In this document: positions 2,365 to 49,111 of the stretch, piece after piece
How positions within the stretch are numbered: position 1 is the first letter of the stretch
Layout: every line of letters begins with the position of its first letter
Source: Bilabrum cf. latius
Taxonomy: Eukaryota
DNA: 64,000 bases
Reading direction: 5' to 3'
Assembly: GCA_965178125.1 (NCBI GenBank)
Contig: OZ237738.1
Coordinates: forward strand, 1,550,001 to 1,614,000
Notes under the pieces: model-generated
What the model was told of the DNA's origin: nothing
Seen by the model: the letters and a program-made list of their open reading frames with translations, nothing else
The model's database searches: none
Position numbers and translations under genes: made by a program

Positions 2365-3081
2365 ATGATGCGAGCCGCGAAGCATACTCGCTGGTTTGGA
2401 CATCATCTGTCTCGCTAGGTTCGCATCGTTCCTGCACTGAGTGCCACATGCGTTGAAAACATTGTTACCGACCCTCATGCAGCGGTGCACACTTCCAGTG
2501 CAGCTTTAGGGGTTCAAGCAGACCTAGAGGCAATTGCAGCTAAGTCTTCTGCTTTCTGGACAGGCCTGGCTCTACTGGGTGCTGGGGGTGGTGCAGTGCT
2601 CATCGCGGTTGGAATTCGCGATTACGCGGTGGACCAGAAGCAGACTGAGATACAAAAACTGGAAACGAAGCTGGAGAGCAAAATGAACGAGAATACAGCC
2701 CGTATCGAGAATCGCATGGACAAGATGGAGTGGAAGCTTGACCACAAGCTGGACAAGATGGAGTGGAAGCTTGACCACAAGCTGGACAAGATGGAGTGGA
2801 AGCTTGACCACAAGCTGGACAAGATGGAGTGGTAGCTTGACCACAAGCTGGACAAGATGGAGTGGAAGCTGGACAAGATGGAGTGGAAGCTTGACCACAA
2901 GATGGACATGGTGCTGAGCATTCTTGCGATGCAGGCATCATCAGCTGGAAGGCTCGGCACTCCTCCTGCCGCCGGGACGGATGGTGTATCCACGGATAGT
3001 CCAAATCCTGGCAGTGGGGGTGGAAGTGCGGGCGGAGCTGACGTTAATCCCGAAGAGGATGGGCGCGATGGCAGGGTATGA
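2365..3081 (+). CDS. Single-TM coiled-coil protein with 11-residue repeats (DKMEWKLDHKL), possible mitochondrial presequence; copy 1
   Basis: Open from ATG 2365 to TGA 3081 with 2 TAG. Arg-rich N-terminus lacking acidic residues, hydrophobic FWTGLALLGAGGGAVLIAVGI, 33-nt tandem repeats. Copy 2 is 21 nt longer, preserving frame. Confidence 0.65.
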
Positions 3082-18753: not shown

Positions 18754-21700
18754 ATGTCAGCCCTGGCGTTTCTTCTATTTGGGGCGGCTATTCGGGCCCA
18801 AGGGTCTCGTATTGCAGTCCACGGGACAGGGTCACCGGCACCTAGTTCAGCAATCAATGATATGGTGTCGCTATATCGCTTGCAGGACGAAAATGTCGTG
18901 AGTTCGGTTCGCGTTCGTGTTCCTGTTCATTCCAGCTGCAGTGACGTTGCAACGCTAGGAGGCCTCAAGGAACTATTTGTGCATTATCTCGAACCAGGCT
19001 GATGATATACGATTTGAAATACCCTTAACCCCCGCTATCATGAGCTGGACTTTACTCGCTGCCGCAGAGCATCTTGTACGCCCCGTATACTTCCGATGCT
19101 GGATTCGAGGCGATTACCAGAGTGGAAACGGATTTTGCAGGTAGCTCAATTCCCCCTCCGTCTTCGATTTATGAAACCTAGACTGATATTCAAGCTGTGC
19201 CCGCCCTAGCGTCGGCAATACTACCCGTGTACAACATACAGTTGCTACCAGCCAATGGGTCGGACAACCCGTTGCGCCCTCCGGCGAACATGGAGATAGC
19301 ACCCGGAGTTGTTGTCGGGGAAAGGTTGATTGTTTCCAGTGAAATCCTTGCCGACATATTTGAGGGCAGGCTGTCTCGATGGAACGATCCACGGCTGCAG
19401 GCGCTGAATCCACACATCAGCTCTAGGCTACCGAGCACTGGTATCATCAGGGCTGTCCGAACAACGAGCAGCGGCAAGACTGAAGCATTTGCTGGATTTC
19501 TCGCGCAGTCGTCGGCTTCCTTCATCGTATCCGCCATCGATGTCTCGGAGGATGCCACCCTGTCGCTTCCTGCGTGGCCGGAAGGAAACACAACATTCGC
19601 TCTGCCCGGGGCCGCCAATGGGAGCGCAGTGGGGGCAGGCCCTCTGCCGCCAGGGGAATACGCAACCACACGGCTGGTGCGGGCACGGGGCACGTCTGGC
19701 GTGGCTGACGTGGTGGTGGGGACGCCTGGGGCCATCGGGTATATCGCTGCAGATGAGGCTGTGGAGCGGGGCATGACCAGCGCGCTGCTGCTGAATCGAG
19801 GAGGCCGCGTGGTGGACAGCACCGCGGAGGCAGTCACGGTCACGCTCATGGAGCGGGGCGCCCGCTTCGACGAGCGGCTGACTGCCTCTTTGCTGGGAGC
19901 CGAGTCTGTGTTTGCGTGGCCTTTGGTAGGGTACACGTACGTGGTATGGGCCATGGAGAGGAGCCGCAGCCTGAGGCAGGAGGCCGTGAGGCTGGGGCAC
20001 GAGGACTCGCTGGCTGGTGAGCTGGCTTTGTCGAGGGAGCTGCAGGGGCAGGGGAGGGAGGGGGCGGCGCGGCTGCGGGAGCTGTGCAGGCCCAAGCTGG
20101 AGGCAGCCAAGTTCTGGCTGTGGTCTTACGGGAGTGAGGCGGTGGCTGGGATGATGCGCAGCCGTGGGTTTGTGCCTGTGACCACGTTCGTCCGGGATAC
20201 GGTGAGGAACAGGCTGCGGCGCGGGCTATTTTGCGGAGGCCTGCCCCTGTTCGAGCGCACGGGGGTGCAGGGCATTGTGGGAACCGGATCGGAGGACCTG
20301 ACGACGTACGTGAATCTGGTGCGGTTCGGGAGGGCCGTTGTGAATCCTGGAGACACGCCTCTGGCCACCATCAACGAGGCGCTGTTCCTGCAGAACGACG
20401 AGCTGGTGGAGTCCTTCCAACCCCTCAACTCAACGGACAGGAGGCTCGAAGCCGCCGCAGGCTCGAGCCGCGACTCGAAAGAGATCCTTGCCAATAGTGA
20501 TGGCATTGCCTCGTCCTCATTGGAGCCATCCACGATAGAGCGAGGCACGGCACCAACGCTGGCTCGCATCGCAGGATCGGGCCCCTGGTCTCGGCTGTCG
20601 CCAGACCAACCATCCCTTTCGTGGCCGGACGATCTGATCGGGTCGAGCGAAGATAGCCTTATCGGCGCGCTTCGGCGCTCGCTGGCCGATGGAACCGAGG
20701 CGGGGCGGGTGAAAGAGCTGCGGCGCATGCTGCAGACAGCTGCAGGGCAGTCTGCTGCCTCCAGCCAGCCATCCACGCCAGAGTACGGAGGGCTAGACCC
20801 TGGATTTGCGGTGGCACTCTGGGCGGGCTGCGCCGACTTGGCAGCTCAGATGGTGATCCCGGGGGGGAACGTGCCTCTGAGCGATGTGGCGACCCGCGCC
20901 GGCCTGCCTCCTGGTGTGGCGCTGGCCAGCGCGCAGCTCCTCGGTGCCACCCTGACCCCGCTGCTGCCCGAGCAAGAGAACCTGCAGGCTCCGGTGAGCA
21001 CGTGTGGAGGCGTGGGCCCAGGGGCCGTTGGGCTCGAGGCGATTTTAACCCTGCTGGGCATGCACTCGATATTTCGACAGAACGCCAACTTGCTGCAGGG
21101 GCTCACTGGACCCTACGGAGAGCGTCAGATTCAGGACGCGCTGGACCCAGCCAGCGCCGAGCTGCCGCGCCCCGGAAGCCCCATCCCCCCAGCCATCTCT
21201 GCGAGCCGAGAGGGCAATCCCTACCTGGATGGCTCTGTGTATCTGCCGGACATGCCCTGGCAGAGCTACCCGCAGATGCTGCGCCCGGAGCTGTTCTTCG
21301 AGTTCATCCCGTACCCCGTGGCTGTCGCGGGCCAAGGGTTCGTGTACACGCTGGCATCACTCGATGCAGCCAGGGACTGGGGCCCAGACCCGGGCGATCC
21401 GACCTCGGCGGCCTCGCAAGCCCCCGCCCTTGCATTCTGCTGGAAGACAATCGCTGGCATTCTGTCGGGGAATGTGACTCATTGGGACGACTCGCTGGTG
21501 CAGGCGGACAACCCGTGGGCTGCAGGGCTGCTCCCGCATGTGCCCATCACCGTGATCTTGCCGCCGTTCCCATCATCAGCTATGTATACATTGGTCGAGC
21601 GTGCCTCGGCAGCTTTCCCGCCTTTTGCTGACTGGATACAGTCACGCCTGACGCCAGCTGCTCAGGTGGTAACGCCCATCTCCACAGCAGTGCCGACGTT

Positions 21701-24700
21701 CCAACAGGATCTGTACCCGGCTCACTTCATGCGGATGTAGTCCGTCTCAGGAGCAAAGAGCATCCTGTCGGCCACCGAGGGCGGCTTGCTGGTGGACACC
21801 ATCTCGCTCCCCAGCCCGGGCAGGGTGGGCCAGTTCCTGGCACATGTCAACGAATCCGCGGGCGCATCGCGAGTAGCAGACAGATGCAGCTCGCCAGATC
21901 CCCGTGCAACAGCTCCCCCAGGCATGGCCCGCATGCCGCTGTGCAGCGCGTCCATCGAGGCGTGCTTCGATGCCTCCCCGCTGGCCTTCAACGAGAGCTC
22001 GCTGCAGGTGAACCTGGGTGCGGCCTCTCTCGAGCAGCAGGTGGCCGTGGGCTGCTGGCCCATCACCTCGACGTACGTGGCGGTGCTGCCCAGGAGGTAT
22101 GCCAGCGCCGATGTGGCTGACACGTCGTCCTCGGCCGTGATCTCGGAAGGACTCAGGGACTACCGCACGGACCCGGATAGCTATGAGGCGCGGACTGGAG
22201 CTGGCAACCTGCTGCCGCTGCTGCCTCCGTGTGACCGCGGCCAGCGTGCCGCTGACCAGGTCAAATTTGGGCTGACTCAGGAGGCGCAGGACTACCTTGT
22301 GCGTTTCCCAGGACTCGGCGCCCTGCCTGAGCGAGCCCGCGCTGCGATCGAGCGGTCGCTGGATTTGGACCTGCTGTGCGGGGACCAGCCAATGGCTCGG
22401 CCGGTGGTGCAGTGCCAGGCAGGCGAAGAGCGGATCAGCTCCAGCCTTTGTCGAAGGTGCGTGGCAGGCACATTCATCCTGCCGGGCCAGGCATCGTGCG
22501 ATGAGTGTCCCCGGGGCGCGGTGTGTCCCGGAGGCGACCAGGTGCTGGCACGGCCGACGTACTGGCAGGATCCTGGCAGACTGACCACGCTGTACCCGTG
22601 CAGAGAGGGCGCGTGCTGCGAGAATCCGACGGGGTAGGGGGTATTCCGCGGGTGTTCCCTAGAAGACGAGGGCCGATGTGCTGACGATCGCTAGAGTGAT
22701 TCGCTCCTGTGCGCCAAGTGCCTCGATGGCCTACGGACGCTGGGAGGCAGGTGCTACGGCTCGTGCGACGCTCCTGCAGTTGTAGCTCGGCAGTATGGTA
22801 TTGGTGCTGCGATTGTGCTCGTCGCGCTGCTGCTCAACCTGCTCATGATGTACCTGGGGCCGGCAGGGCACTCTGGCCTCTTCAAGGTCATGGTCGATCA
22901 CGTGCAGGTGGCCTTCCTATTCCTGCAGGGAGTCAGCGGATCCATCGCTAACGTGCCGGCTGTGTTCGGTGTATCCGACGAGATCCCAGCCACGATGCAT
23001 GCGATGGCATGCTTGCTGGGCCCCAACAGCGAGTACCTGGCCCCAATCTCCCAGGGACTCGTGGCTCTCTTTGCTCTTGGCATGCTGCCCGTGATGTTCT
23101 CGATTGAGCTGGTCGGGAGGAAAGCACTCAAACTCGTTGTGTACTACTGCGCCCCGGATGAGGACGTGCAAGACTTTTCCCGACTGGCCCAATTGCGCAG
23201 GGTGACGGCCCTCGAGATGCACTCGAGGGCATGGTGCGGCTCTGCTGGATGCTGTCGAGGGACTCCGAGGCCTCGCTTGCAGCGCATCACGACAAGCGGT
23301 CATAGCTACGAGGTAGCAAGCAGTAGCTAGGTGGATACTGCCAGCTCTGCAGGAGTCCATGAGACACCGCGAGGGCCATTGGACCCCGAGGGGCGCCTTA
23401 CCGTGCCGGACTCGGCTCGACGGAACGCTCCCGATTCGGCCAGAGCATATAAGAAGTTGAATTGGTTCCGGACTGGCACCGATGTGGACATGAGATTCCG
23501 GGGCAGGTACTTCTGGGCTTCGTGGCGTATGCTGTTGATCAGCTACATGGCGGTTTTGCTGTCCGCGTTGTCGGTGCTTGATTGCAAGGACGTGGCAGGG
23601 CAGCGGCTGATGAGGACTGCGCCAGGTCTGCGGTGCGATTCGGGCCAGCACCGCACACCGTAGGCACTGGCAGTGATTGTGACTATCGTGGTAGCAGCTG
23701 CCTTACCCCTTTTTGTTGTTCTAGTCATGTATGACCAGCTGGGTGGCGAGACGGCTATACGGGTGGGTCGTTTCCAGGGTGCGAGTTTCTGGATGGCCAG
23801 GACCATCATGAAGGCCAAGGTGGCGCTGTCCAGGATACGGGGCGTGGGTCCGTGCTGCTGCGGTGGCATGGTCAGACAAAGGTGGTACAGAGAGTACGAG
23901 AATAGTGGCAAGGGCCTGCCTGGCGATGATCTAGTGCGGACGAACGGAGATCCGTTCCGGCTCATCGCCTTGAAGGACCGACAGAAGCAGATTAAGAGGC
24001 AAGCAATGCGATAGAAACCTAAGGATGAGCCCCCTAAAAGGAGCCACGGCGATTCTGTGGCCAGAGTGGTGCCGGCAGATGCATCTGACCTCACCCCCGG
24101 GGGTACACTTCGTCAAAGTGGCGTGCCTCAGCAGACAAAACGACGAGGAGCAAATCTGGCAAAGCTCAACGTGGAGGCAGAGCGGACCAGCTCAAGTGGT
24201 CGGGTCAAGCCGCTATCCACGCAGAGCAGGAGCAACTCGGGATCCGAGCACCCCTCCGGCAGTGAGGCAGAGGTGGCGGTAGCGCCAAGTACCCAAGAGG
24301 AGCCTCAGCTAGTGGAGGGCCGCAGCACAGAGAAACCCGAGGGCAAACAGAGCGAGAGCATGCATGCAGACATAGGCAGGGAAGTAGTCAAGCGCAGTGA
24401 TGACACGCGGCAGTTTGGCGCGCGGCGGGCCCGACCCATTCCTCAGATAGACATGGCAAACCTGTCCGCTAGCAAGTCGGCTGGGAGCGCGCACGGCAAC
24501 TCAGCGAGCGGACGCAACCCGTGCGCGAATGCTCCATCGATGGAATCAAGTATCCCCGGGGTTCGCTCCATCGGGTTAGATGTGGCATCCTCTGGGTATT
24601 CCCACGCAGCAGGTGGCTCCCAGGAGGTGGGACTGGTCACGCCCGAGCTGGCTCCAGGGGGACTGTCCCAGAGTCACTCAGATTGCCCCGACGCACCGTC

Positions 24701-26489
24701 TAGCGCACACGCCGGAGGCCGCTAGCGTGCTATGGCTGTTGGGCAGCGAGTTCAGCCAGCGGACCTTGCCGCTTCCCCACCCCGCATCCGTATACCTGGG
24801 AGCTCGATGCGGTCCCAGGGAGGAGGCAGGCCAGCGCGATCCAACACGGAGCTGCCACCGCAGCGCGCTCAGTCGGTGCAGCTGACCGTAGAGCCCACAC
24901 TAGTGGATGGACGGCCCACCAACGACTGGCGAGCCCACCACGGATCACATGATGGTCAGCTGGCGAGCAACCCAGCCACGAAGGCTCTCAAGAAGACCTA
25001 CAGTGGAAAGAAGCGCAAGAAGCGGGCGGCCATGGTCGTGACCCTGGCCGAGATGCAGACGGTCGGTCTGGAGCTGGCAGCATGGGTCAGGGAGCCATAC
25101 CGCCTATGGTTCGAGGGGTTCTATCTATTCCTCAAAGCGCTCATAGCTGTGCTGGCCACCATAATCCCATCCAGGGTGGGTGGCGTGCTTGTGGCATCTC
25201 TGGTGTTGCTCACGACAAGGCTAGTCATTACGCATTGGCGACCCTTCTACTAGCGGAGGTCCATGCTGGCGTTTGTGGTGAGCTCAATCGGGCTGGTAGC
25301 TGTGTCTGTGCTTGTGTTAGCCACAGAGGCCGTCAAGCAGGTGCTGGATCTGCAAGAGCTGGATAGTGGAAGCGATGCTGAGCGGGAGGCCTTCGCCGTG
25401 ATGAACGCCCAGTGGCTTCGAGACACGGCGTATGGGCTGGCCGCCGCCCCTGCCCCGATCCTGCTGTACCTCGCTGGGAAGCAGATCCTGGAGGCCTTCG
25501 GCTGCATCCATGTGGACGAGGCAGAGATCGAGAGGGAGGAGAGGGAGGGGAAGAGACTGACTCTGCAGGCTGCCAAGCTGAGGCAGCAGGCCGTGCGGCA
25601 TGCTGTGGAGCAAGAGGCGCAGCTGCATGGCGATGTCACAGGCGGTGGTTCGCCTCATGCTGGTGGCCAGACCAGAGAGGGAGTCGAGGGTGGAGTGCCG
25701 GGCACAAGGCCAGCGCGGCCTGCCATTGGGCTGCTGCTCCCGCCCGTGACACCCGCCAGCCGGACCGCCAGCGAGGGCTCCAGCCAGTACAGCGCAAGCC
25801 ACAGCAGACGCGCCAGCACTGATTTCAACGAGTGGGACGGCGGGTCTCTCAGCGACGACGGGCGGGGCAGCGTGTCGGACAGCATGTCCCTGTCTGCCTC
25901 CACCCCGAACCCGAGGAACAGGATGATCCTGTCTAGGCGGGTGCGCCGCATGTCCACCCTCAGCGACACTAGGCGATCGGCTCGCATGTCCGAGTACGAC
26001 GCCTCCCAGCGCACCGTTGTGGATGGGGAACACGACCAGGAGGAGCACGAGCAGGTGCTCCAGCATGGTGGTGCAGGCAGTGGCGGCGGCAGCTCGTCCA
26101 TGGAGAAGAGCGGGGGGGGCGGGAGGGAGGGGGCATCTCCAGTGCAGGAGGTGGTGCTGGCCAGCAGCGACATGGAAAGAGAGGGGGTTCTCTTGCCTCA
26201 GGGTGCCACCCCGCCCCCCTTGACCCCTGCCGGCATGGATGCCCCTTCCCCCTCTCGAGTGGGCCTCCTGAGAGTGGAAATGCAGGGGGAACTGGACCCA
26301 CCGCCGGCCCCTGTCTCCAACCTGGTTCTGGTTGGAGGTCAGCCGGAGTCAAGGCGCTCCTCGAGCGGGAGCGTGTCGCGAGGCGGCGCGGGGGAAAGGC
26401 ACCTGAGGCGGAATGGGTCTAGTGAGGGCGGCAGCGTGCTGCCGACTGTCCGGTCTGCCAAAGCGTTGCAGTACTTTAGGGGAACATGA
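18754..26489 (+). CDS. Receptor-like protein A, ~2520 aa: two PstS/PBP2-like domains, Cys-rich repeats, multi-TM domain; intron 18898-19067; 9 in-frame TAG
   Basis: Eight ORF fragments lie in one frame separated only by TAG. PstS-like DFAGS, ADIFEGRLSRWND..LQALNP, VRTTSSGKT, TPGAIGYI, AWPLVGYTY; a second copy IAGILSGNVTHWDD..CWPITST; CRRCVAGTF..CDECPRGAVCPGG; several hydrophobic segments. Ends at TGA. Start could be 18694. Confidence 0.8.
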
Positions 26490-26669
26490 ATTGAATTGAT
26501 AGGCCACTACCCTAGTTTCTGCGTATTTGCTTGAAGCCAATCCGACGCTGCGACCACTCTGTCGCTGCTAGCCTGGTGCAGGTGTGGTCGCGACCAAAAT
26601 ACTCGTCACACCTTCAAGAAGCACAACCGACACAAGCAGAGAGATTTCAGTGCCCGCATACACAGCACC

Positions 26670-28862
26670 ATGGATAGCCTGAGTCCCGGCAACAGGGACC
26701 ATTTATTGACATAGATGGCCCTTTTGGACAAAGAATCGAAGGCTCGCCCACCTCCTCCGCCGCGAGACAGCCATGGTCGAACTCCTCGCCAACAGAAACA
26801 AGGTGAGCACCTGCTTCGATGGCTTCTCCATGTGCCGTCTACGTGCCTCGTGTTGGCACGTCCTAAGCTATTCAAATTAATATTTTAGCAAAGACCGTTC
26901 CCGTGCGGCGCAGCAACTACGGGATACCATTCGAGTCCGTACCGCGATTCTAGCCGCAAATAGATTATGCCGCTGTCACCCTGGGATGATGAGGCAGATC
27001 CCATACCGTAGGAGTATTAGCCAAATTTGTTAACCACAAGCAGTGCAAGTGGGGCTCCGACTCCACCTTCGAAACAGAAATTGCCGCAGTCGTTGCGAGA
27101 GTGCCACGCACTGCTGATTGAGCAACGTCGCCAGATTCAAGAACAAAATACCATATCTCGCGAACTTAGGGACCGTTTGCAGGCAGCTGAGCAAGAGGTC
27201 AGCGCGCTGAGGCTGCAAGGCAAGGTCGCAGAATCGCAGCAAAGCGAAGGAATGGCTGCTCTTCAGGAGGACAACCGCAGGCTCGAACTCGAGGTCCAAG
27301 CCCTCAGGACCGAGAAAAAAGAACTGCTGCAGCGTGCTCTACAGAGCTCTCGTCGCGCGCGGCAAGCCACTGCTCAGATGGCCAAGGCGGCATCGAGCTC
27401 CTTCGCCCAAACCATCGAAGCAGCTGCTTCCGCCCGAGCGGACGCCCGGGAGCGAGACCGCGCCTTCGGGTTCCTGCCAGAGGACGAGGAAGCACTAGCG
27501 CAGGATAGTCCCGCCAGCTGGGGCGAGAGGGGCGGCACCACGAGCGGCCTGCCCCGCGGCTCGCAGGGCCGGGCAGGTCAGGGCGGGGTGGGTGGTGCAC
27601 CGGTGGCTGGGTCTGGGTCTGCCAGTGGGGAGGACGTCGTGGCAGAGCAGGTGCGGCGGAGGGCCAGAGAGGCGGCCGATGCTCTGTTGGCATCGTCCAC
27701 CACGCTGCGGCAACGCCGGGCGGGCAGGCTAGGGGCAGATATTGCTGCGGGGCAGCGGCTGGCTCGGGAGCAGGAGGGCATGCAGCAGCTCCCCGGGGCC
27801 ATCTCAGTGGCCGGGACCGTGCCAGCGTCTGCCCAGGATAGGATCGCGGCCAGGAGCCGGAGCCAGGCAGGGGAAGGCGCATCGCAGGAGGGCGGCAGGA
27901 CGTCAGGCCCCTCGATGGTGCCACCGCTGGCTGACCACCTCAAGAGCCCAGCGGGGCTGAGGCCCTCTGCCTCGGCGAGGACAGCGGCCATGGCCAGAAG
28001 AAGCAGGTATGACGGCGCATTCCCGCCGACTCCATCCCCTGCCGTGCTGCAGCCAGGGTATGGAGGGTTCTAGTCTCCGCGAGGAGGTCCCGGGGGTGCG
28101 GGGGGCGGCTATGGAGGAGGGTATGGAGGCAGCGGCAGTGGGTACGGAGGCATGCAAGGGAGCAGGGGTCTATCCAGGCATCCGCTGCGTGACTATCCCT
28201 CCGGCACCTTTCGCGCGAGCAGGGGCAGCGGCAGGCCCATGGGAGGTACGAGGCCGGGGACAGGGAGGGCAGGGACTGGGGCCCCGCCCGGGCTGGGGGA
28301 TGCGGGACGAGGCCGCTCTAGGGGAGGCAGCGTGCAGAGCCCCCCGGGGCCACAGGGCATTGCGCTGGACCAGCTGGTGCCCGTGACGTTCGATGGGGTG
28401 CCCGTGTCTGCGCCCTACCACGAGCAGCCCTTTATGTGGTGTGCCATGCAGGGGATCAAGGCTATCAAGCACTGCGGGTGGCCGGGCAAGCCGCACGAGA
28501 AAATCTTCTTTTTGGATTTTTCCGACCTGCAGAACCCCTGCCTGAGGTGGAGCTCTCCGCCCACGGCCTCTATCGAGGGCAGCAAGGAAGTGAGTCTGTT
28601 CTCCATCGACGAGGTGTCCAAGGGCTTCGTCTCGCCCAAGCTGGAGAGGTATGGCAACGAGGGGCTGGAGGGGCTATACTTGGTCTTCCGATGCGACCAG
28701 GGGCAGCGCACACTTGACCTGGAGTTGGAGCAGGAGGCGGACAGGGACTGGTTCTACAAGGGGTTCAACGCGATGCTGGCGGCGTACGCGGGGCTGCTGC
28801 AAAGAGGACAGCTGGATGGGCAAGTAGTAGACAGGATACGGGCCGAGGTGGACGGGAAGTGA
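26670..28862 (+). CDS. Coiled-coil, low-complexity protein with C-terminal PH domain (PLC-PH/Mcp5-PH-like); probable intron 26803-26913
   Basis: 27027..28073 and 28152..28862 join across a TAG. C-terminal GIKAIKH..KPHEKIFFL..LRWSS..SIDEVSKG..RTLDLE..DRDWFYKGF resembles a PH fold. The 5' exon is inferred from GTGAGC...CGCAG in matching phase. Confidence 0.7.
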
Positions 28863-29086
28863 CGGCCGAAGTTGCTGCCCGTTTGCATCGAAATTGACCT
28901 AGGCGTTTTGTATGTTGGATTCCAGCCATCAAAGCCAGCATTGCCTACGATAGTAAACCGCGCGCTGCCCCCTCCGCAGGGGGCTGCAACAGCATGGATG
29001 TGCAATCTTGCATTTGTCAAGTCAAGAATCATCAGGAGAGACTGAGCTGAACAGTCAAACTATCTTTTCCTTGCCATGTTTTCGTT

Positions 29087-32000
29087 TCATTGTCCCTAAT
29101 TGTCACCCACAGCCGGCAAATCATTGGAGTTTGCCCATGCAAGCGATGGCCTTCTGACCCGATGCTGGCCCCCAGCTTCATCTTTACTGCGACCATGTTC
29201 AAAAGATGGAACTGAAGTAGGAGGAGGCATCTCATGAAACTCGATGGGCCCGTCCGTGGCGTTACTAGAGTCTGAATAGTGAGGCGATCGGTCGGGCTTC
29301 GACCCGCTCCGCATGCTAAATCCGCTGGCGACCGAGGCCCCGTCATCCAGCTGCGACATGCGGCGCACCCCAGCCCGTGTCAAACCACTTGCGTACGACC
29401 TGTTATCATCTGAGCCATTCCGCGACCCCAACCCTCCTGTGTTGATGCCTTTGCTGCTGCCCTGCGAAGACCTCCCCCACTTGGACTAGCCCTCGGACAC
29501 GCGGCTCCCCATTGTGTCTACGCTGTGGATGCTCTGCATGCTGCTCGATGACAGGCGACGCGCAAACGCCAAGCCAACGTGCTTGCTTCGAAGTCGGCGA
29601 ATCTAGCCGATTGGGGGCGCATGCCCATGCCCGGTGCTGTGCTGTTGCTAGTCCTGCGACTCTATGGCCCGCGCCTTCTGCCTGAGCTTCTCGGCCTTCT
29701 CGGCAACCTTGGCTTCCCGCCTGGCTGCCCTCTCCTCGGATGCCTCGTCCACATGGATGCAGCCGAGCACTTCTAAGACCTGCTTCCCAGCGAGATACAG
29801 CAGGATCGGGGCGGGGGCGGCGGCCAGCCCATACGCCGTGTCTCGCAGCCACTGGGCGTTCATCACAGCGACGGCTTCTCGCTCTGCGCTGCTTCCACTG
29901 TCCAACTCCTGCAGGTCGAGCACCTGCTTGACGGCCTCGTTTGCAAGCATCAGCATGGACACAGCTACTAGACTGACGGAACTCACCACGAACGCCAGCA
30001 TTGACCTGGGCTGGTAGAACGGCTGCCAGTGCGTGATGAGTAGCCTTGTTGTGAGCAGCACCATAGATGCAGCCAACACGCCTCCTACTCTTGACGGAAT
30101 GGTGGTTGCCAGCATTGCAATGAGGGCTTTGAGGAATAGATAGAATCCCTCGAACCACAGGCGGTAGGGATCTTTGACCCATGCGCCCAGCGCGTTGCCC
30201 ATCGACTGCATGTCGGCTAGAGACACGATTGTAACAGGCTAGCGCTTCTTCTTACTCTTCTTGCCCGTTTGTGACGGCAATCCCACGCTCATATCTACTA
30301 CGCCATTTGATGCCTGTCCTCCGCGGTGTCGCTAAGAGCTCCAGGCCGGTGACCGCAGGCCGGAAGTGCTGGTGACCGCAACCCTAGATTCAGCAGGCCA
30401 CTGCCTCACCGCTTTCGGTACGCGCCGCCCAGCTACTTCCCCAGATGAGGACCGTGTGCGCGCGTTGGTGCGGCCATTTACTTTTGCAGTGGTCTCAGTC
30501 TCCGCAAACGAGCCCCTACTCGACTGAGACATGGTCCTCGTCAGATTCAGCGACCCACCATCGTCCAGAATACTAGGTTCTACCTGGCCGACCACATCTT
30601 CTTCATCCTGCATCGGGGCGCTATTCTACACGGGGGAGCCAACACCTGCATCGAGGCCCCCGTGCGGGCCTAGCAGTCCTGATGCCACACTCGAGGAGTC
30701 GTGCTCGTACTTCTGGCCCTCCCGTGCCTGTTCTACCTGCGAGGCAGTCGGCAAGTTCAATGCTGGTACCGCCACTGCATTCGCCTCTGCTCTAGAGCCA
30801 GAATACGGTAAGATTGCCCGACTAGCAGCCCGACCCCTAGGTTTCCCCTTTCTCCTTCCTTTTCGTCGCGCCTTCAGCGCGAGCAGCCGGAAAGGATCTC
30901 CGTTCGTTGCCACCAGCTCGTCACCCGGCAAACCCTTACCCCTGCCCGTGTGCAGCCTGTACCATTTCTGCCTGACCATGCCACCGCAGCAGCACGGACC
31001 CACGCCCCGTATCCTGGACAGCGCCACCTTGGTCTTCATGATGGTCCTGGCCATCCAAAAACTCGCACCCTGGAAGCGACCCACCCGTATAGCCGTCTCG
31101 CCGCCCAGCTAGTTGTACATGACAATAATTAGGACGGCAGGTAGAAAAGCACCAAAAATTGCGATGACAAAGGCGGATAGTCCAGCAGCCAGGTGGTGCG
31201 ACTCGCTGTCGCAGTCAATCCCGGGGGACGTCCTCATGAGCCGCTGTCCCGCCACCACCTTGCAGTCCAGCACCGACAGAGCCGAAAGCACAATTGGCAT
31301 GTATGCGATCAGGAACATCCGCCAGGAGCCCCACAGGTATTTCTGCAGGAAGTCCATGTCGATGTCCGTGCCAAGAGTGGCCCAGCCAGTGGCGAGCTCG
31401 CCCACCCCAGTGTTGAGCTCGAGGTCACGTGTGGCAATCACCTCAACAGCAGGGGATGCTGCGGGCCCACCTTCCTCGTCTTGGAGGCTACCAGCTCCTA
31501 CATTTCCTGAAGCATCCTAGTCATGCAGGTCCAGCGACCTGTTGCTGCCGAGGCTGTTGGACGCGCTGTAGGATCCGTGCTCTGCAATGTGCCTAGCAGC
31601 ACGGCAGCAGCCACCGGTCCCGCAAAAAACCCGGGCCATGATCTCTGCACAGCCAGCGCTCACAACGGCTGCATCCACTCTAGCTTTGGCCATGTCGTGG
31701 CTCGGACAGCAGTAGAATATTGCAATCTTGAGCGACTTTCGGCTGCCCATCTCGACGAGCAGCATCACTGGCATCATTCCCAAGGCAAAGGAGCCCAGTA
31801 GTCCCTGGGAGATTGGGGCCAGGTACTCGCTGTTGGGGCCAAGTAGACAGGCCATTGCATGCAGGGTACCCGGCATCTCGTCAGATACACCGAAGAGCGA
31901 GGGGATGCTAGCAATGGAGCCATTCACCCCCTAGAGCAGCAGAAGGGCTACCTAAAAATGACCAACCAATACCTTGAATAAACCGGAATGTCCCACGGGC

Positions 32001-35000
32001 CCCATCTGCAAAAGCAGACAATTGAGAATCGCACACATTACCACTAGCGCAGAAGCCACAAGCCACTGCCGCCGTCGCATGGTGACCGAGTCGCACGTCT
32101 CAAAGCAACGCCCACCAAACGTCCGGTGTCCCGGAGCACACCTGCCGCAGATGGGGGATGCGATATCCCGGGTAGCAGCACATCGAGACGTGCTGTTGAT
32201 CGAACAGCCCCGGAAGTTACCATGAGCATCAGGGCTCTCGCAGCAGGCACCGGCAGGGCACGGATACAGCCCGAGGATATCGTCAGGGTCCTGCCAGTAC
32301 GTCGGCCGTGCCAGCACCTGGTCGCCTCCGGGACACACCGCGCCCCGGGGACACTCATCGCACGATGCCTGGCCCGGCAGGATGAATGTGCCTGCCACGC
32401 ACCTTCGACAAAGGCTGGAGCTGATCCGCTCTTCGCCCGCCTGGCACTGCACCACCGGACGAGCCATTGGCTGGTCCCCGCACAGCAGGTCCAAATCCAG
32501 CGACCGCTCGATCGCAGCGCGAGCTCGCTCAGGCAAGGCGCCGAGGCCGATGGAACGCACAATCCGCTCCGTGGCGGTCACTGTCAGTCCGAACTTGACC
32601 TGGTCAGCGGCACGCTGGCCGCGGTCACACGGAGGCAGCAGCGGCAGCAGGTTGCCAGCTCCAGTCCGCGCCTCATAGCTATCCGGGTCCGTGCGGTAGT
32701 CCCTGAGTCCTTCCGAGATCACGGCCGAGGACGACGTGTCAGCCACATCGGCGCTGGCATATCTCCTGGGCAGCACCGCCACGTAGGTCGAGGTGATGGG
32801 CCAGCAGCCCACGGCCACCTGCTGCTCGAGAGAGGCCGCACCCAGGTTCACCTGCAGCGAGCTCTCGTTGAAGGCCTACGGGGAGGCATCGAAGCACGCC
32901 TCGATGGACGCGCTGCACAGCGGCATGCGGGCCATGCCTGGGGGAGCTGTTGCACGGGGATCTGGCGAGCTGCATCTGTCTGCCACTCGCGAAGCGCCCG
33001 CGGATTCGTTGACACGTGCCAGGAACTGGCCCACCCTGCCCGGGCTGGGGAGCGAGATGGTGTCCACCAGCAAGCCGCCCTCGGTGGCTGACAAGATGCT
33101 CTTCGCGGCCGCAATCGTTGATGCCCTGATGAATCGATCCGGATACACATCCTCGAACAGATCAAGCGGCGCTTCTGGGTCCAGCTGTCGCTCAGCTGCA
33201 AAGCTAGGCACCTCCACAGCCAGTTTGCTAGCCACCGCCTGCAATGTATAAGATGGGAACGGCGGCAAGATCACGGTGATGGGCACATGCGGGAGCAGTC
33301 CTGCAGCCCACGGGTTGTCCGCCTGCACCAGCAAGTCATCCCAATGAGTCACATCGCCCGACAGGATACCGGCGATCGTCGTCCAGCTGAATGCAAGATC
33401 CGGTGCATCCTCCGCATCGCTGTCTGGGTGCACAGTGCTCCAGTCCCTGGCCGCGTCAAGCGTGTCCAGGGTGTACTCCACAGCTTTCCCAGCCACTGCC
33501 AACGGCATGACCATGTACTCGAAGACATGATGCGGGTCAAGCCCCTTGGGGTCCTGCTGCCAGGGCATGTCTGGCAGTGACACGGTGCCCTCCATATACA
33601 CCGTATCTGCAAGAGGGTCTTCCACCGTACTCAGCATGTCATTCGACTCGCTCCAGTCCTGCTGAGTGATCGACCCGTTGGCTCCTGTGGCCGTCTGCAG
33701 CATGAAACCGCCTCCGCCACTTCTCTCCCGAATGCTCTTGAATGCCTCCAGCGCGACACTGCCGATCGCACCCGGCCCGCTGCCACCGCACGTCTTCACG
33801 GCGGCTGTCACCGGATCCACTTGTGGTAGCACAGCCTGTACCGCCGATGCCATGGCCGATGCGTTGGCCAGTCTCACGCCAGGAGGCAGCCCCAGACTGG
33901 AGACCAGCCCTGCATCGGGACTCGCGCTGCCGTCCACCACCAGCTGAGCAGCCAAATCCACGCAGCCCGCCCACGTCGCAATCACGTTGCCGGGATCAAG
34001 CCCCGCACCGTGACCAGACTAGTCCTGGCCTGACGACGACAGCTGCCGAAGCATCCAGCCCGCATATCCGGCCACGCGAGGATGTGGCAGTGCCCGCTCG
34101 AGTCGCAGCAGCCGCCCAGTATCCCCATGCTGCTTCAGCCGCCTGCTCTCAGACGGAGCCAAGCGCACGCCATTCAGCACAGACCCAGACTCCTGCTCCT
34201 GGCCAGGTGCCGCAATCTCAACGGCGGTGGCCAGAGGCGTGTCTCCAGGATTCATCACAGCCCTCCCGAACCGCACCAGATTCACGTACGTCGTCAGGTC
34301 CTCCGATGCAGTGCCCACAATGCCCTGCACCCCCGTGCGCTCGAACAGGGGCAGGCCCCCGCAGAACAGACCCCCCCGCAGACGCTCCTCCACGATGCCG
34401 CGCACGAACGGGGTCACCGGCACAAACCCACGGCTGCGGATGGCTACATTCACGGCCTCGCTGCTGTACATCCACAGCCAGAACTTGGCTGCCTCCAGCT
34501 TGGGCCTGCACAGCTCCCGCAGCCGCGCCGCCCCCTCCTCCCCCTGCCCCTGCAGCTCCCTCGACAAAGCAAGCTCACCAGCCAGCGAGTCCTCGTGCCC
34601 CAGCCTCACGGCTTCCTGCCTCAGGCTGCGGCTCCTCTCCATGGCCCATACGATGTACGTGTACCCTGCCAAAGGCCACGCGAACACAGACTCGGCTCCC
34701 AGCAAAGAGGCCGTCAGCCGCTCGTCGAAGCGGGCGCCCCGCTCCATGAGCGTGAAGGTCACGCCCTCCGCGGTGCTGTCCACCACGCGGCCTCCTCGAT
34801 TCAGCAGCAGCGCGCTGGTCATGCCTCGCTCCACAGCCTCATCTGCAGCGATATACCCGATGGCCCCAGGCGTCCCCACCACCACGTCAGCCACGCCAGA
34901 CGTGCCCCGTGCCCGCACCAGCCGCGTGGTTGCGTACTCCCCTGGCGGCAGAGGCCCTGCCCCCACTGCGCTCCCATTGGCGGCCCCGGGCAGAGCGAAT

Positions 35001-35806
35001 GTTGTGTTTCCTTCCGGCCACGCAGGAAGCGACAGGGTGGCATCCTCCGAGACATCGATGGCGGATGCGATGAAGGAAGCCGACGAATGCGCGAGGAAGG
35101 AGGCGAAAATCTCCGTCGTCCCGCTGCTTCGCTTTCGAACTGCCCTGATGATGGCCAGATCGGGGAGTCGCGAAGCAACGTGCGGGTTCAGCTGCTTGAT
35201 TCTCTCGTCGTTCCATTTGGCGATCCGCCCTTCGAATATGTCAGCGACCAAGGGCCCAGAGAGCACCAAGCGGTCCCCGACGTCGACCCCTGGCGCAACA
35301 TTCGGGACCTCTGGAGCACCAGAACTCAATGAATTAGTAGCAGGAAGGTCCAATGTATACACAAGAACAACTGCAGCGGCGAGGGCTGGAGCCGCTTGCA
35401 GATCGCTCTGGGCTTCGTACTCGGTTTCTCGCACCCGATCGCTCCCTGCGAAATCCACGGAGTTTGCCATGATGGCTCTGACCCCCGAGCTGGATCCAAT
35501 GGCATCGTATGATAGTGACTGCGATGGATAGGGGCTTATCTCTCATTTTTTCAAATTTGGCTGAATACCATGAGGGGCTTGTCGCGACACAGCCACTGAA
35601 TTGACCTTGTTTTAGCACCAACTCACCACTTCTATATTATTTAAGGAGTAGTATCTAATTGCATCATTGTACGCCCTATAAGGTAGGCCTGCACCTGCTC
35701 CCAACACCTTAATGGTTTGTTCTGAACTAACAGCGGTGCTGAGCAGAAGGAATGCTCCTTGCAGTACCGCGAGCGCAATACCAACGCTTGGCAAGATATT
35801 TTTCAT
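29087..35806 (-). CDS. Receptor-like protein B, ~2200 aa, paralog of A; intron 35519-35626
   Basis: Signal peptide, then PstS-like LGAGAGLPY, YDAIGSSSGV, VDFAGSD, LVLSGPLVADIFEGRIAKWND, VRKRSSGTT, GAIGYI. All fragments are in one frame broken only by TAG. Intron is at the same position as in A. Ends at TGA. Confidence 0.82.
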
Positions 35807-36110
35807 GATGAAATCGTTTAGTTACCAGGTAGTCTCCCTCGAACACCCGAGTCAGGAAGAGAAGACACAGTCCACAGATGCTTTAGCGTCTAGGCGTTAA
35901 TTCAAGCCGTGTACAAGTGGTAGCCGATTCTGCGGGATCTGTAAACCCCTACTCTCAAAACATAAATGGATATAGTAAACACCCGCAGTGGCAGGTCCGC
36001 ACGATTGAATTCCAGAAGCGCCAAGGTACTAAAAGTGATCGATCCAGCATTGCGACCACGACCGCACTTCGTGGTCGCAGTATGATTCCGAGCTTTCTTA
36101 GACACAAAAA

Positions 36111-37929
36111 TCACTCTGACGTTCTAGGCGCAGCTTCAGCAGCCTCTCCGTCGCTAGAATCCAGCGTAGTGCCCAGTTCCGTACCGTGCTCGGCCTGCCT
36201 GGCGGTGGTGCCAGCCAGATCACCTGCCTTTGGTAGCCTGTCCAAAACGTTTTCAGCAAGTCCCGTGGAAGATGCTCCATCCTGCGATGGAATCTCCTTA
36301 GCCCCCTTTTCTCCCGCCTTGATACTCCCGCCTCCCTGTCCCCCACTCCTGGGCCTCACCGCCAGGATGAGCGCCCTCTGCATACGGTCCCACCTCTGGA
36401 ACTAGCCGTCATATGACGACTCCTCTGCCCATGCGACACCCACCAGCACAACCATGAGTAACAGTCCTATTCCCAGCACCACTAGGCTCTCCGCCCACCC
36501 GGGCTCGCCCTACTCTGAGTCGGCTCGGAGACCGGCGCTGGCTGCCACCACTGGCCCCAGCAGGCTGGCCGCACTGAAGCAGACGTGCATCAGCGCGGCC
36601 CATGCCACCAGGGGCCACGGTGACGGCTCCTTGTACACCGTGTACCTGTGCCACGGGATCCTTGAAGGGGGCCTCGAGGTGGAGCACCCGCAGCACCCTG
36701 CGCTACTGCAGCCATCACCCCTGCCCCTGCCGGTGTTACCGTGCTCCCCATCCCGGCCAGCAGCACCATCGCCCTCCCATGCATCCTCCTGCAGCAGCTC
36801 ATCCTGCTCCCTCGTCCACACCGGCAGTTCCTCCTCCCCAACTTCCCCCCTGTAGCCCCTCCCCGCGCCCTATTGGCCCCCTACCCCACCGCCATCGCCC
36901 CAGCAGCAGCAGCCCGCCCACACGCAGCTGCACGTGACCCACGAGGCCCACCCCGCGCGTCCATTTGCCTCCAAAGCGGCCTCTTTGTAAGCCCTCTGGT
37001 GCCTCCCCAGCACCACCTTCGCCACCCCATCGAACTGCGTCCTGGCGCGGTACACCACCAGCAGAGCGCTCCTGACGCTGTCCGCTCGCAGCCAGGCCAG
37101 GGCCACCACGGCGGAGCAGGCCATGTGCACGGGGACTCCTACCAAAACCCGAGCGGCTGCTGTCCACGCTGCTGCCTTCCAGCCGCTGGCAGCTGCCTAC
37201 ACCGCGCTGAAGAGCAGCGCCTCGCCGAGCCCGAATCCAAGGGCAGCTGCCATGAGGCCGTGAGGGCGAGCCAAAGGCAAATAGAGCAGCTGCTTCCTAC
37301 CAAGACGCTATAAAGCCCTTCTCTTTGCTTCGCTGGGAAGCAAGGAAGAGGACGACGCAGTCGAAGACGGTTGTAAATCTGCTTTTTCGGCCGCCGGGAG
37401 CAACACCCACCTAGCCACAATGGCAGCAAGCAACTTGACGGGTTCCTCAATCACACCTGCGAGCACATATCGCAAATTATTAAGTTGGGGTGTTGGTATG
37501 CTTTTGAATAGGAAGATTCCGGTGGTGCCAGGATTTGAAGCATGCACACAAATCCTCACCAGCAGCCAAGACAGATACTACAAGTACAGCCACCGCAGAA
37601 CCCATACTACCATCCAGCGTGAAAGCATGTGATACACTATCTGCTCCGAATACGCGCTAAACAGCCCACGCAGTGAACCCTTCAGCCAATGTAGCTATCG
37701 GGAAGGCGAATAGCACGCCGAAGCAGAAAGAGGTTAGGCTCAGCTTTACAATCGCAGACAGGTGCGCTTCCGCACTAGGTATATAAGTAGATTGATGTAG
37801 CCAAATAAATGCCGGAATGATGGGCACTAGCGATAAAGCGGCAGCCGCTCCTCGGCTTGGTTCTATGGCAGCAAGCCACACCAGAACTGCCAGAGACGTG
37901 ACAGAAATTGTTGCCAGACACCCATACAT
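36111..37929 (-). CDS. PrsW-like intramembrane protease family protein; intron 37457-37559
   Basis: With TAG read-through: multiple TM segments and ordered motifs AGVIEEPVK, ALGFGLGEAL, RVLVGVPVHM, AALMHVCF, matching the PrsW EExxK / FxxxE / H / H pattern. Confidence 0.68.
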
Positions 37930-38168
37930 AATATATTCGCCATTCTAAGATAACAATGGCTACTCTAGATTACGCTATCGGGCTTTCATGACTGAACAGA
38001 TGACCGGTCTTTGTCGGGTTTAGCGCTGGCTATCGGTTTTGTTGCGTCTGTTTTAAACGGATTATCCGATATAATATATTCGCGCAAGATAGACTAGTCT
38101 AGGACGCTCTCCCAATATTGGACACTGAAATCATTGCTTTATACGCAAGGTGAAGCCTGATGATAAAG

Positions 38169-41100
38169 TTATTCCCACCGGGCGCCCCGCTTTTTCGCGT
38201 CCTTGATCGCGACTTTCATGGCCTGCTGGATCTTGGACGCAATGAGCGGAACCACTGCGTCCTGGAGGCCGTGTTTGTTGGCGAACACCTTGGCCTCCTG
38301 CCTTGGGTCTGTATCTGCATGCACCCGGAGCGACTCCTAGCCACCGCTCGGGAGTTTGATCTTCACGTTACACACCACTATCCGCTCTCGCGGGGATTGC
38401 GCCTCAGTTGCACCAGCAGCTAGTGCTGCCTCTTGCTGGCCCTCGCTCCCTGCTGCAGCTGTATCGTCCCCATCCTGCCCATCCTTGCCCTCGCTCCCTG
38501 CTGCAGCTGTATCGTCCCTATCCTGCCCATCCTTGTCCTCTGCGGCTGCAGCTACAGCAACACCATCCTATCCATCCTTGCCCTCGCTCCCTGCTGCAGC
38601 TGTATCGTCCCCATCCTGCCCATCCTTGCCCTTTGCGGCTGCAGCTACAGCAACACCATCCTGTCCATCCTTGCCCTCGCTCCCTGCTGCAGCTGCATCG
38701 TCCCCATCCTGCCTATCCTTGCCCTCTGCGGCTGCAGCTACAGCAACACCATCCTGTCCATCCTTGCCCTCGCTCCCTGCTGCAGCTGTATCGTCCCCAT
38801 CCTGCCCATCCTTGCCCTCTGCTGCTGCAGCTATATTGTCCCCATCCTGCCCATCCTTGCCCTCTGCGGCTGCAGCTACAGCAACACCATCCTGTCCATC
38901 CTTGCCCTCGCTCCCTGCTGCAGCTGTATCGTCCCCATCCTGCCCATCCTTGTCCTCTGCGGCTGCAGCTACGGCAACACCATCCTGTCCATCCTTGCCC
39001 TCGCTCCCTGCTGCAGCTGTATCGTCCCCATCCTGCCCATCCTTGTCCTCTGCGGCTGCAGCTACAGCAACACCATCCTGTCCATCCTTGCCCTCGCTCC
39101 CTGCTGCAGCTGCATCGTCCCCATCCTGTCCATCCTTGCCCTCGCTCCCTGCTGCAGCTGCATCGTCCCCATCCTTGCCTTCGACTGCTGAATCGCTCGA
39201 CCTCGTGGAACCACCTCCCAACCGTTCTCCACCAGGCTGTGACACGGGCGAAGACCTCCCCATGCCCTCCTCCACGGGAGACCAAGAGCGGGTAGGGGCC
39301 TCGTCTTCGTCGCCAGGCCCATTTACGCCTTGTCCATCCTTGAATCCAGCGGGCCCCACGTCGCCCTGGGTCCCCTAGCTTTGCAGGCTGGGTATGGACA
39401 TGCGGTGAGGCAGCCCGGCAGCATCCGCGGCGGACTGGGCGAGTGCTCCAGCATTCGTAGCAGGGCTCGCCTCGGGCAGAGAAGAGGCACTCGAGGTACC
39501 CGAGGGTTGTACGCGCCTTGCAACACCCATCGCCGGTCGTGGTCCTGGGGGTGGTGGCCTCGAGGGCGATTTCTGTGGGGACACCGAATGTCCGTTAGTC
39601 AGAGGCGCTACGTGTCCTTCTGCCAAGCTACCATCAATAAGTGGTCGATCCGGCAAGTCTGTGGGTGATCCTGGGGGCTCCTGCGGCCGCACAAGCGGGT
39701 GGTCTGGCCGCTGGAATGCACTGTCCAGTGCTGTACGAGGACTCTGTTCCTTCTTGTGCCGGTCGGTGCTCGCGGGATCCTGCGGACTCTAGGCTGCTCC
39801 TGCCTCTCTGCGTCCCTTGAGCGCGTGCACCAGCTTTTGTCCCTGTGGGCTTGCGAGCAGCTGACGCAGCTTGTCGTGGGGTGTCTGCAAGTCGTCCTGA
39901 TGTAGAGCTGGACGGAAAGTGCTGTCCTCAGGCAATTTGGCTTCCCCTTGTTCTTCTTCCTCATCCCTCTTGCCTTGTCCTCCATTTCCATTCCCAGCAC
40001 CATCTCCCTTCGGGCTATCCTACCATAGGGCCCCCTGCACGAATGCATGCACCTCTGTCTGGCTAACAGGGGGTAGTGGCACTGCTCGCCGCTGCTTGCC
40101 CACTGCGCCGTACGGAGACCCAGCGGCTCCCTACGGCCCACTACCATCCAGTTCAAGCTGCAGCTCCTCTGCAAGCTGCAACAGGTCGTTCTCGGAGGAT
40201 GACCCGGCTCCTGACGCCAACGAGGACGTGCCCAACCGAGATACACCACGATGCTTTGGCTGCTGGTCCAATCGCCTGGGTGCCTTGCGCCGCGGTTTGC
40301 CGCGTGGCTCATGGCCGCTGCCATTGCTGTTCGTTCTGGGCGCTTTCCCATTACCATTCCGATACAACTTACGGGCCGTTGCCTTCGCGTGTGCCTTGCT
40401 GTGGGGCCTCTTCGGCGCAGCTCGACTGGGGCTCGCGGGCGAGCCAGCCGAAGGCGCTTGCCGGCGCGCCGCTGGTGAGCCCCAGGCCGGCCTCTTTTCG
40501 AGCGGACTCGGCTTCTTCTTTCGGGTGAGTCCACGCTATGATGGGCCCTATTTGCGAGCGGTTGAGCTGTCGGCTGCCCTTTTTGTTGATGGAGAGCCCT
40601 TCGCTTTTCCTGCCCCTTTTCCTTTCGACTGCCGCGCACTGGCACCAGCAGGTTGCCCAGAACCCAGGACGGATCGCCACAGGGTGGGCACGCGCTTCAG
40701 CGACCCATCATCAGCTCGGTCTTTGTCTCTGCTCTGTGACCTGCGCGTGTCACGTGGGGCAGATGTGGCCCGGCTCCCTGCCTGATGGCCCGCCACAGTG
40801 CTTGCGAGCATGGCGTCTGCTTCGCGCCGCATCGCTGCTCTGGCTCGCTTCTTCTCGTTCGCCGAATGGGGTGCCCGGTGCCCTGCCAGTTCGCTTCTAG
40901 ATGCAGGCCTGGCTCTTGCTGACGTTGATCGGTGACTATGCCCATGGCTGCGACCTTGCCTGTGCCTTTTACCACTGGCTCGGGCCCTTCGTCCAGACGG
41001 TCGCGACCTGCCAACACCACTGGCAGCCTACGAAGCCGGTTCTGCAGTGGCGTTGCGGGAGGACTTTGAGGCGACAGCCTTATCGGCCTCGCGCTGGCCG

Positions 41101-45785: not shown

Positions 45786-45951
45786 GCCAGCTAATCCGAT
45801 CACCAAACGGCAAGTGTGGAGTGTGGTCGCTCGTCGACTCGCTTCTGTTCGCACCGAACCCCCAAATGGCGCCGCGCGTGATCAGCGGAACCAATGCGCT
45901 GGTGCGCCAAGGTCCTGCGCATCCTAGCTAGACGTAGCATAGTATCATAGC

Positions 45952-47677: not shown

Positions 47678-47811
47678 ACGAGGAGGTGCCTTCGGGGCGG
47701 ATACGGATGCTCTGGGCGCTGGGTCATTGAACAGGATGTGCCTGCAGATTCATGCATGCTGAAAGGGCATCCACATTCCGATCGGTAGTCTGCTATGCCA
47801 TGCCATTCATA

Positions 47812-48918: not shown

Positions 48919-49111
48919 TTTTCTACTTAAAAGACAATTTGAAATCCGCAACGTACTCCACGCAATCGAATTGACTCGATTCTACCGAAAGACCGCGTGA
49001 TACATCCAAATCTGGTCGCCCCGAGCTGCCAACAGCGAAAATAGCGAATGATCCGGAGTAGCACTAAACGCTCTTGCCGAAGGCACAGGTAGAAAGTCGC
49101 GGGCGGGAAGC

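Follow-up and report, generated by a model that had tools for sequence, protein, structure and literature searches.

Probable reassignment of UAG alone to glutamine in the nuclear genes of a GC-rich, intron-poor eukaryote

The 64 kb stretch of DNA analysed here (contig OZ237738.1, positions 1,550,001 to 1,614,000 of the forward strand; called the window below and numbered from its first letter) carries long protein-coding genes interrupted by many in-frame TAG codons. Comparison of these genes with paralogs, orthologs and wider families indicates that, in this GC-rich, intron-poor eukaryote, nuclear UAG is very probably read as glutamine (Gln), with UGA serving as the main stop and UAA also terminating. 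An earlier note on the same DNA had proposed glutamine as the meaning of TAG from matches between two paralogous genes and from a minisatellite. This interpretation is supported, and its basis is now the added ortholog and family evidence and not the paralogs alone.

The window comes from the nuclear genome of an intron-poor eukaryote and has a guanine plus cytosine (G+C) content of 62%. Under the bacterial/standard stop set (table 11) its longest open reading frame (ORF) reaches 847 aa, whereas reading through TAG yields ORFs of 2561, 2471, 2127, 1937, 1761, 1415 and 1190 aa, distributed over both strands and separated by short spacers. Annotation of this genome and of its relatives with the standard code would therefore shatter most of the long genes. 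Database proteins from relatives are already fragments. The products of the window include eukaryotic families and Pfam domains such as the telomerase RBD (TERT), Nipped-B/cohesin HEAT and the Bud13 splicing factor; in addition, a class II fumarase (E=7e-107), an organellar IF-2, a HAD phosphatase, a GH10 xylanase and a sulfatase are encoded. Pyrrolysine-type, bacterial or phage recoding was considered as a source of the TAG codons and rejected, since the genes are eukaryotic and nuclear.

Codons were counted in 16 gene frames trimmed to their likely coding parts, 17,758 codons in all. Within these frames, TAG was found 116 times, and TGA and TAA were both absent. The two off frames contained 131 and 113 TAG, 260 and 276 TGA, and 34 and 49 TAA. 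The in-frame frequency of TAG is thus close to that of the off frames, which leaves no detectable selection against this codon. Set beside 625 CAG and 135 CAA, TAG would account for ~13% of the Gln codons.

The clearest case of a gene translated through TAG is the fumarase, which was compared with a diverged relative, L001, a metagenome contig of 10,262 nt found by a scan with the fumarase exon. The encoded fumarase proteins are 95% identical. Two features of the gene are relevant here (an asterisk in a peptide marks TAG):
46255..46414, plus strand: fumarase intron of 160 nt with GT..AG borders, missing from a contig of run X5, which joins 46254 to 46415
46772..46774, plus strand: the single fumarase TAG, in LPGLK*LHASLK, with Gln (CAG) at this position in the 95%-identical L001 ortholog P0123

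Between the two fumarases, dS (synonymous divergence) is about 1.5 and dN (nonsynonymous divergence) 0.048, and dN/dS downstream of the window TAG is about 0.03. The protein is therefore translated through TAG and held under strong purifying selection beyond it. Furthermore, contigs of X5, a run from another study, match the window at every letter over 39600-45801 and 46415-49003. In these contigs the joined fumarase exons give a continuous frame and a canonical fumarase N-terminus. Because the GT..AG intron is skipped and the exons are joined in frame, the X5 contig was taken as a spliced transcript, a status that rests on one joint in a run labelled 'RNA? (probably DNA)'; among the run records, no RNA-labelled run with this stretch was found. 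The intron-less contig keeps TAG 46772, with no T>C change there. Introns hiding the TAGs were also considered and ruled out, as no joint occurs in the X5 contigs across 39600-45801 or 46415-49003. Run X6, from a third study, contains identical sequence over 48008-56400, and the same letters in contigs of a separate study exclude an assembly error. As a side observation, high-depth contigs from X6 and X12 with 80-90% likeness fall on the conserved core of the fumarase (46600-47400), with many false joints; they come from other organisms in those runs.

These data bear directly on the possibility that the TAGs are real stops, found in pseudogenes, created by assembly or sequencing errors, or edited to CAG in the mRNA. 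Such an origin is extremely unlikely. It would agree with the occurrence of TAG opposite CAG, TGG and AAG, each one base away, as expected of nonsense mutations, but it is contradicted by the fumarase dN/dS past TAG, by the absence of in-frame TGA and TAA over the 17,758 codons against 260-276 off-frame TGA, by the identical letters in X5 and X6 contigs, which come from two other studies, by the retention of TAG 46772 in the spliced X5 contig, and by L001, a relative at a dS of about 1.5 whose in-frame TAGs occupy different positions.

With these signs that TAG is a sense codon, the residue it specifies was addressed through aligned homologs. The starting point was a pair of giant inverted paralogs, A and B, lying on either side of a 2.2 kb gene, each combining PstS-like domains for phosphate binding with a Cys-rich region and a part that passes the membrane several times:
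19074..26489, plus strand: paralog A, a 2471-codon ORF with 9 in-frame TAG and a TGA end
29087..35470, minus strand: paralog B, a 2127-codon ORF with 13 in-frame TAG and a TGA end, inverted relative to A

In paralog A, the PstS-like region (PBP_like_2) is N-terminal. When the two proteins were aligned with TAG written as X (MAFFT), 1255 identities were obtained over 2103 aligned columns, and all 22 TAG sites (9 in A, 13 in B) could be inspected. By block, the DNA identity of A and B ranges from 73% to 92% and includes fully identical stretches, which suggests gene conversion between them. All seven coordinates at which the earlier note had placed a TAG hold a TAG codon on the strand given (7/7), and the five sites it had set opposite CAG in the A/B comparison are borne out by the alignment:
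19179..19181, plus strand: TAG in A opposite CAG (Gln) in B, in a moderately conserved context (9/21)
25251..25253, plus strand: TAG in A, PFY*RRSM, opposite CAG in B, with 17/21 residues identical; S and E in two distant homologs
31952..31954, minus strand: TAG in B, GHF*VA; A and 8/8 distant homologs have Gln in this column
31931..31933, minus strand: TAG in B, LLLL*GV, opposite CAG in A; homolog P0245 has Gln as well, and seven others vary
31109..31111, minus strand: TAG in B, MYN*LGGE, opposite CAG in A; Gln in the two closest homologs, Glu in four, A/V in two

Sixteen further sites, mostly in divergent stretches, face S (3), A (3), D (2), G (2), R (2), H, V and T (1 each) or a gap (1). 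Among them are the four TAGs in divergent parts of A that had been listed as facing S, H, D and A. The minisatellite claim, that one KDGQDG unit has TAG where the others have CAG, likewise agrees with the sequence, in which 15 KD[GR]QD[GR] units comprise 14 with CAG and one with TAG:
38568..38570, minus strand: TAG at the Gln position of one KDGQDG minisatellite unit, with CAG in the other 14 units

Among the single-base changes that create TAG, CAG>TAG is the most common, so that a comparison of paralogs alone is confounded. For this reason, six pairwise alignments were pooled (A/B, four gene pairs between the window and L001, and the GH10 gene against its ortholog P0003), giving 71 TAG sites, and these were split by context. 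A context was called conserved when 10 or more of its 20 flanking columns were identical, which applied to 20 sites and left 51 as divergent. The alignments added to A/B include the following sites:
917..1054, minus strand: three TAG of the GH10 xylanase gene, at 917, 1016 and 1052, with Gln at 3/3 in the 94%-identical ortholog P0003
43452..43454, minus strand: TAG in the 2561-codon low-complexity gene, KSPE*ARV, opposite CAG in L001, with 15/20 flanking residues identical

In the conserved contexts, TAG faces Gln at 13 of the 20 sites, and no other residue occurs more than twice. For comparison, ordinary Gln codons in the same stratum are faced by Gln in 76% of cases, and the Gln background is 3.4%. 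The partners at the 51 divergent sites (A9, D6, R5, S4, E4, V3, G3, T3, L3, K3, P3, Q2, N2, H1) look like background. The tabulation of residues facing TAG across conserved orthologs that had been proposed as a check returned Gln at 13/20 sites of the pooled alignments, at 3/3 in GH10 (P0003) and at 1/1 in fumarase (P0123). A dominance of Leu, Glu, Tyr or Lys, named beforehand as the result that would speak against glutamine, was not seen (of the 20 partners, one is Leu and one Glu, and none is Tyr or Lys).

Likelihoods were calculated with an empirical substitution table derived from the same alignments. For the 20 conserved sites, the log10 likelihood was -14.2 for Q, compared with -31.1 for K, -31.2 for H, -33.6 for E, -36.8 for S and -39.8 for L; for all 71 sites it was -77.0 for Q against -94.8 for K. 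In addition, a mutation-only null was constructed from the in-frame codon counts and the substitution spectrum against run X11. Under this neutral null, the predicted sources of TAG are CAG (36%), GAG (19.5%), AAG (12.5%) and TGG (12%). The observed 13/20 Gln has P=0.008 against the 36% null and P=5e-15 against the 3.4% background. In the subset of window-L001 pairs, where dS is saturated, Gln was found at 6/10 sites, one of them as CAA (P=3e-7 against background).

Evidence free of mutational proximity is provided by the B31952 column, which is invariantly Gln, in 9/9 other sequences (A and eight distant homologs). These homologs were collected in a library-wide HMMER search with the membrane half of B, as fragments 27-56% identical. 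Homologs of A and B of 991-1736 aa are present in the representative library. The full-length B protein gave no match at E<=1e-5 among shorter proteins, and a scan of metagenome contigs returned 30 pattern matches with 0 relatives among them. The N-terminal part of B matched only PstS-like protein clusters, the first of which is mostly eukaryotic, with Haptophyta the commonest group.

Several observations weigh against glutamine or limit how far these comparisons carry. Seven of the 20 conserved-context sites face another residue (S2, L1, H1, I1, R1, E1). Matches to Gln in close paralogs and close orthologs are partly expected whatever TAG means, and the 6/10 of the L001 subset is not significant against the 36% null (P=0.11). 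Among individual columns, that of the fumarase TAG is variable (120 homologs: H31, T29, K19, ... Q3) and holds Lys in human fumarase, and those of GH10 1016 and B31109 are mixed Q/E, so that Glu is not excluded by these two columns alone. In the 'KMEWKLDHKLD' repeats of two tandem gene copies, which the earlier note had not mentioned, TAG replaces TGG twice and AAG once. The gene models are also ORF-based, and some N-terminal TAGs may fall in untranslated regions. Furthermore, a tRNA with a CUA anticodon was not found by ARAGORN in the 64 kb window or in the 10 kb of L001. The main counter-example, B32876 opposite CTG, had been claimed in the earlier note and stands in the A/B alignment; TAG and CTG differ there by two bases, within a block in which 20/21 residues and 30+30 flanking bases are identical in A and B. 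The sites concerned are:
32876..32878, minus strand: TAG in B opposite CTG (Leu) in A
50185..50187, minus strand: TAG in the membrane-protein gene, VDL*WRTW, opposite AGC (Ser) in L001, a non-Gln partner in conserved context
2833..2835, plus strand: TAG in place of AAG in a single 'KMEWKLDHKLD' unit of tandem copy 1
4569 and 4722, plus strand: TAG in place of TGG in 'KMEWKLDHKLD' units of tandem copy 2

Some of these points would suit a sense codon for Glu, Leu, Ser or Lys, all of which are known meanings of UAG in nuclear codes, with those for Leu, Ser and Glu described in PMC11687900. For Glu, the mixed columns are the relevant evidence: GH10 1016 has E64 and Q37 of 120, with E in PDB xylanases, and B31109 has E in 4/9. 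The same GH10 column shifts to Q15 and E6, with T1 and 3 gaps, in the 25 closest homologs. GAG is moreover the commonest neighbouring codon (787 in frame), predicted by the null at 19.5% of TAG partners and seen once. A Leu reading could draw on the TAG opposite CTG in its nearly identical block, and a Ser reading on the two Ser partners in conserved context. Taken over the 20 conserved-context sites, Gln leads K, H, E, S and L by at least 17 log10 units, the partners there are E1, L1, S2 and K0, and the B31952 column is Gln throughout; a residue other than Gln is thus very unlikely. PDB comparisons showed Lys in human fumarase, E in 4/5 of the GH10 xylanases shown, and Arg in a HAD phosphatase where L001 has TAG. 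Since wider alignments show each of the three columns to be variable or mixed Q/E, the PDB comparisons are not decisive by themselves.

The glutamine assignment concerns UAG only. Of the 16 genes, fourteen stop at TGA and two at TAA, a small sample for the latter. The fumarase stops with TGA at the C-terminus of the family, and one TAA can be placed by domain content:
63753..63755, plus strand: TAA ending the HAD+IGPD (HisB-like) gene, 20 residues past a complete Pfam IGPD domain

The read-through extension past this TAA looks non-coding. Were TAA to have the same meaning as TAG, the CAA/CAG ratio applied to the 116 TAG would predict about 25 in-frame TAA. None was observed, so that the code is the UAG-only variant and not UAR=Gln.

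L001 is syntenic with the window over 40-51 kb and was also compared for its TAG positions. Its in-frame TAGs number 22 in the counterpart of the 2561-codon gene, 6 in that of the membrane protein and 1 in that of the HAD phosphatase, while its fumarase has none. Turnover of positions between the two sequences is near-complete, with 34 window-only, 28 L001-only and 1 shared. L001 has 56% G+C compared with 62% in the window and carries 22 TAG in 1762 codons of the shared low-complexity gene, more per codon; the use of TAG is therefore not simply tracking GC content. Closer relatives in runs X11 and X12 are roughly 90% identical across the stretch. No change at TAG 39789, the only TAG in the part covered densely, appears among the differences listed for X11 and X12, which cover 40 of about 1,600 and from which rows may be missing.

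Decoding of UAG as Gln may be envisaged along the lines of other UAG-only codes. UAG would be read by a tRNA-Gln(CUA), one base from tRNA-Gln(CUG); CUA is the sole anticodon to pair with UAG and not with UAA (PMC5304391). Release factor eRF1 would have lost or weakened recognition of UAG, with its third-base G, as also suggested by those codes (PMC5304391). Under these circumstances, silent CAG>TAG transitions would allow new TAG codons to be gained freely, which fits the near-complete turnover between the window and L001. The only tRNA detected in the window is tRNA-Thr(TGT), at 10823-10894 (ARAGORN and Rfam), and none was detected in L001 (ARAGORN).

Ambiguous decoding of TAG, through near-cognate read-through by tRNA-Gln(CUG) with no dedicated tRNA or through a context-dependent choice between sense and stop, was weighed against this arrangement. 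Context-dependent codes are described in other protists (PMC5304391), and an ambiguous TAG would be in keeping with the lack of a tRNA(CUA) in the 74 kb examined, with the TAG that paralog B carries 3 codons ahead of its TGA stop, and with the rarity of TAG in the most conserved genes relative to low-complexity parts. In-frame TAG is nevertheless as frequent as off-frame TAG (116 vs 131 and 113), and each of the 16 modelled genes is closed by TGA (14) or TAA (2). Genes also contain up to 20 TAG, and by our own arithmetic a read-through of 90% per site would leave about 12% full-length product. Ambiguity is accordingly considered unlikely.

The distribution of TAG among genes is uneven. It is scarcer in the most conserved ones, with 1/476 codons in fumarase, 0/358 in sulfatase and 2/551 in HisB, compared with 12 in the first 414 codons of IF-2; this scarcity may reflect codon preference or a residual cost. 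Dense clusters were observed in Gly/Ser/Arg-rich sequence, namely 8 TAG in 85 codons of the low-complexity N-terminal extension of IF-2 (52083-52335) and 6 TAG in 22 codons of the membrane protein (50482-50545, 'GSEG*GESGEGGSS*G*D*G*GG'), where one TAG is common to L001. The tandem copies with 'KMEWKLDHKLD' repeats (1366-3081 and 3315-4919, plus strand) are near-identical and consist of a membrane segment followed by these 11-residue repeats. They have two TAG positions in common, and the coding status of their long N-terminal ORF parts is doubtful.

Other genes of the window show additional features. PstS-like domains occur in paralogs A and B, and IGPD is found elsewhere, fused to a HAD domain. 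In this latter gene (62103-63755, plus strand), a HAD-type phosphatase domain, a long Ala/Gly/Pro linker and an imidazoleglycerol-phosphate dehydratase form a HisB-like bifunctional layout in a eukaryote. The sulfatase ORF (16780-18003, minus strand) covers profile positions 2-256 of 301 and ends abruptly, its 3' part probably lying behind an intron. Upstream of the RBD in the telomerase ORF, a long in-frame (Ala-Gly)n microsatellite (about 56500-56950, plus strand) may represent either an intron or a genuine insert of low complexity.

Regarding relatives, public data contain several levels of divergence: identical strains in three studies, ~90% relatives in two further ones, and L001 at a dS of about 1.5. 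In a FastTree phylogeny of 121 fumarases, the window and L001 group with unnamed sequences, followed by Palpitomonas and Cafeteria; as a single-gene tree, it does not place the organism. The fumarase of A. occidentale (P0175, 74% identical), the only aphelid among the matches, groups with fungi, far from the window.

Codes that split UAG from UAA are rare, described for Iotanema, a rhizarian, Scotinosphaera and a few ciliates (PMC5304391; PMC11687900), and they bear on how tRNAs and eRF1 tell the two codons apart. An organism that is GC-rich, terminates with UGA and can apparently be cultured, and whose relatives lie at several distances, would offer a comparative series for the origin of tRNA-Gln(CUA) and the change in eRF1. 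The code of the window may have an independent and undescribed origin, in a clade of aerobic, GC-rich and intron-poor protists outside both ciliates and metamonads. If so, it would be the first such code in a GC-rich genome and would serve as a natural test of whether pressure towards GC, under which CAG is abundant and TAA rare, can alone drive the capture of UAG. Literature searches, with supplements outside their reach, found no published report of such an organism.

Altogether, the window joins a known but rare kind of code, in which UAG alone is read as Gln. This layout corresponds to NCBI table 15. UAG as Gln with UAA kept as a stop is described for Iotanema spirale, of the Fornicata (PMC5304391), and UAG-only Gln codes for the ciliates Hartmannula sinica, Trochilia petrani and Protocruzia tuzeti (PMC11687900). 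Like these organisms, the window reads UAG as Gln and keeps the UAA and UGA stops (PMC5304391; PMC11687900). The main stop differs, being UAA in Iotanema and the ciliates, as described in these sources, and UGA in 14/16 genes of the window. Furthermore, the window is unlike DNA of a ciliate or an anaerobic metamonad in its 62% GC, in its long chromosomal DNA with many genes, and in encoding TERT, a class II fumarase and an organellar IF-2.

Reassignment of UAG with a different amino acid is described for the rhizarian exLh and three TARA phyllopharyngean ciliates (Leu) and for Scotinosphaera (Ser) (PMC5304391; PMC11687900). These codes resemble the window in changing the meaning of UAG alone and leaving UAA as a stop (PMC5304391; PMC11687900), but the conserved-context partners in the window are Leu at 1/20, Ser at 2/20 and Gln at 13/20. 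The UAR=Gln code (NCBI table 6 type) of hexamitin diplomonads, some ulvophyte green algae, Streblomastix and Amoeboaphelidium protococcarum shares TAG=Gln with the window. In the case of A. protococcarum, an algal parasite, it is described in PMC5304391, PMC6299283 and PMC11687900. Amoeboaphelidium lives with algae (PMC6299283, PMC5304391), and some runs with small shares of the window are labelled algae or protist metagenome. In contrast to these UAR=Gln systems, TAA is not a sense codon in the window, where it is absent in frame against about 25 expected and ends the HisB-like gene.

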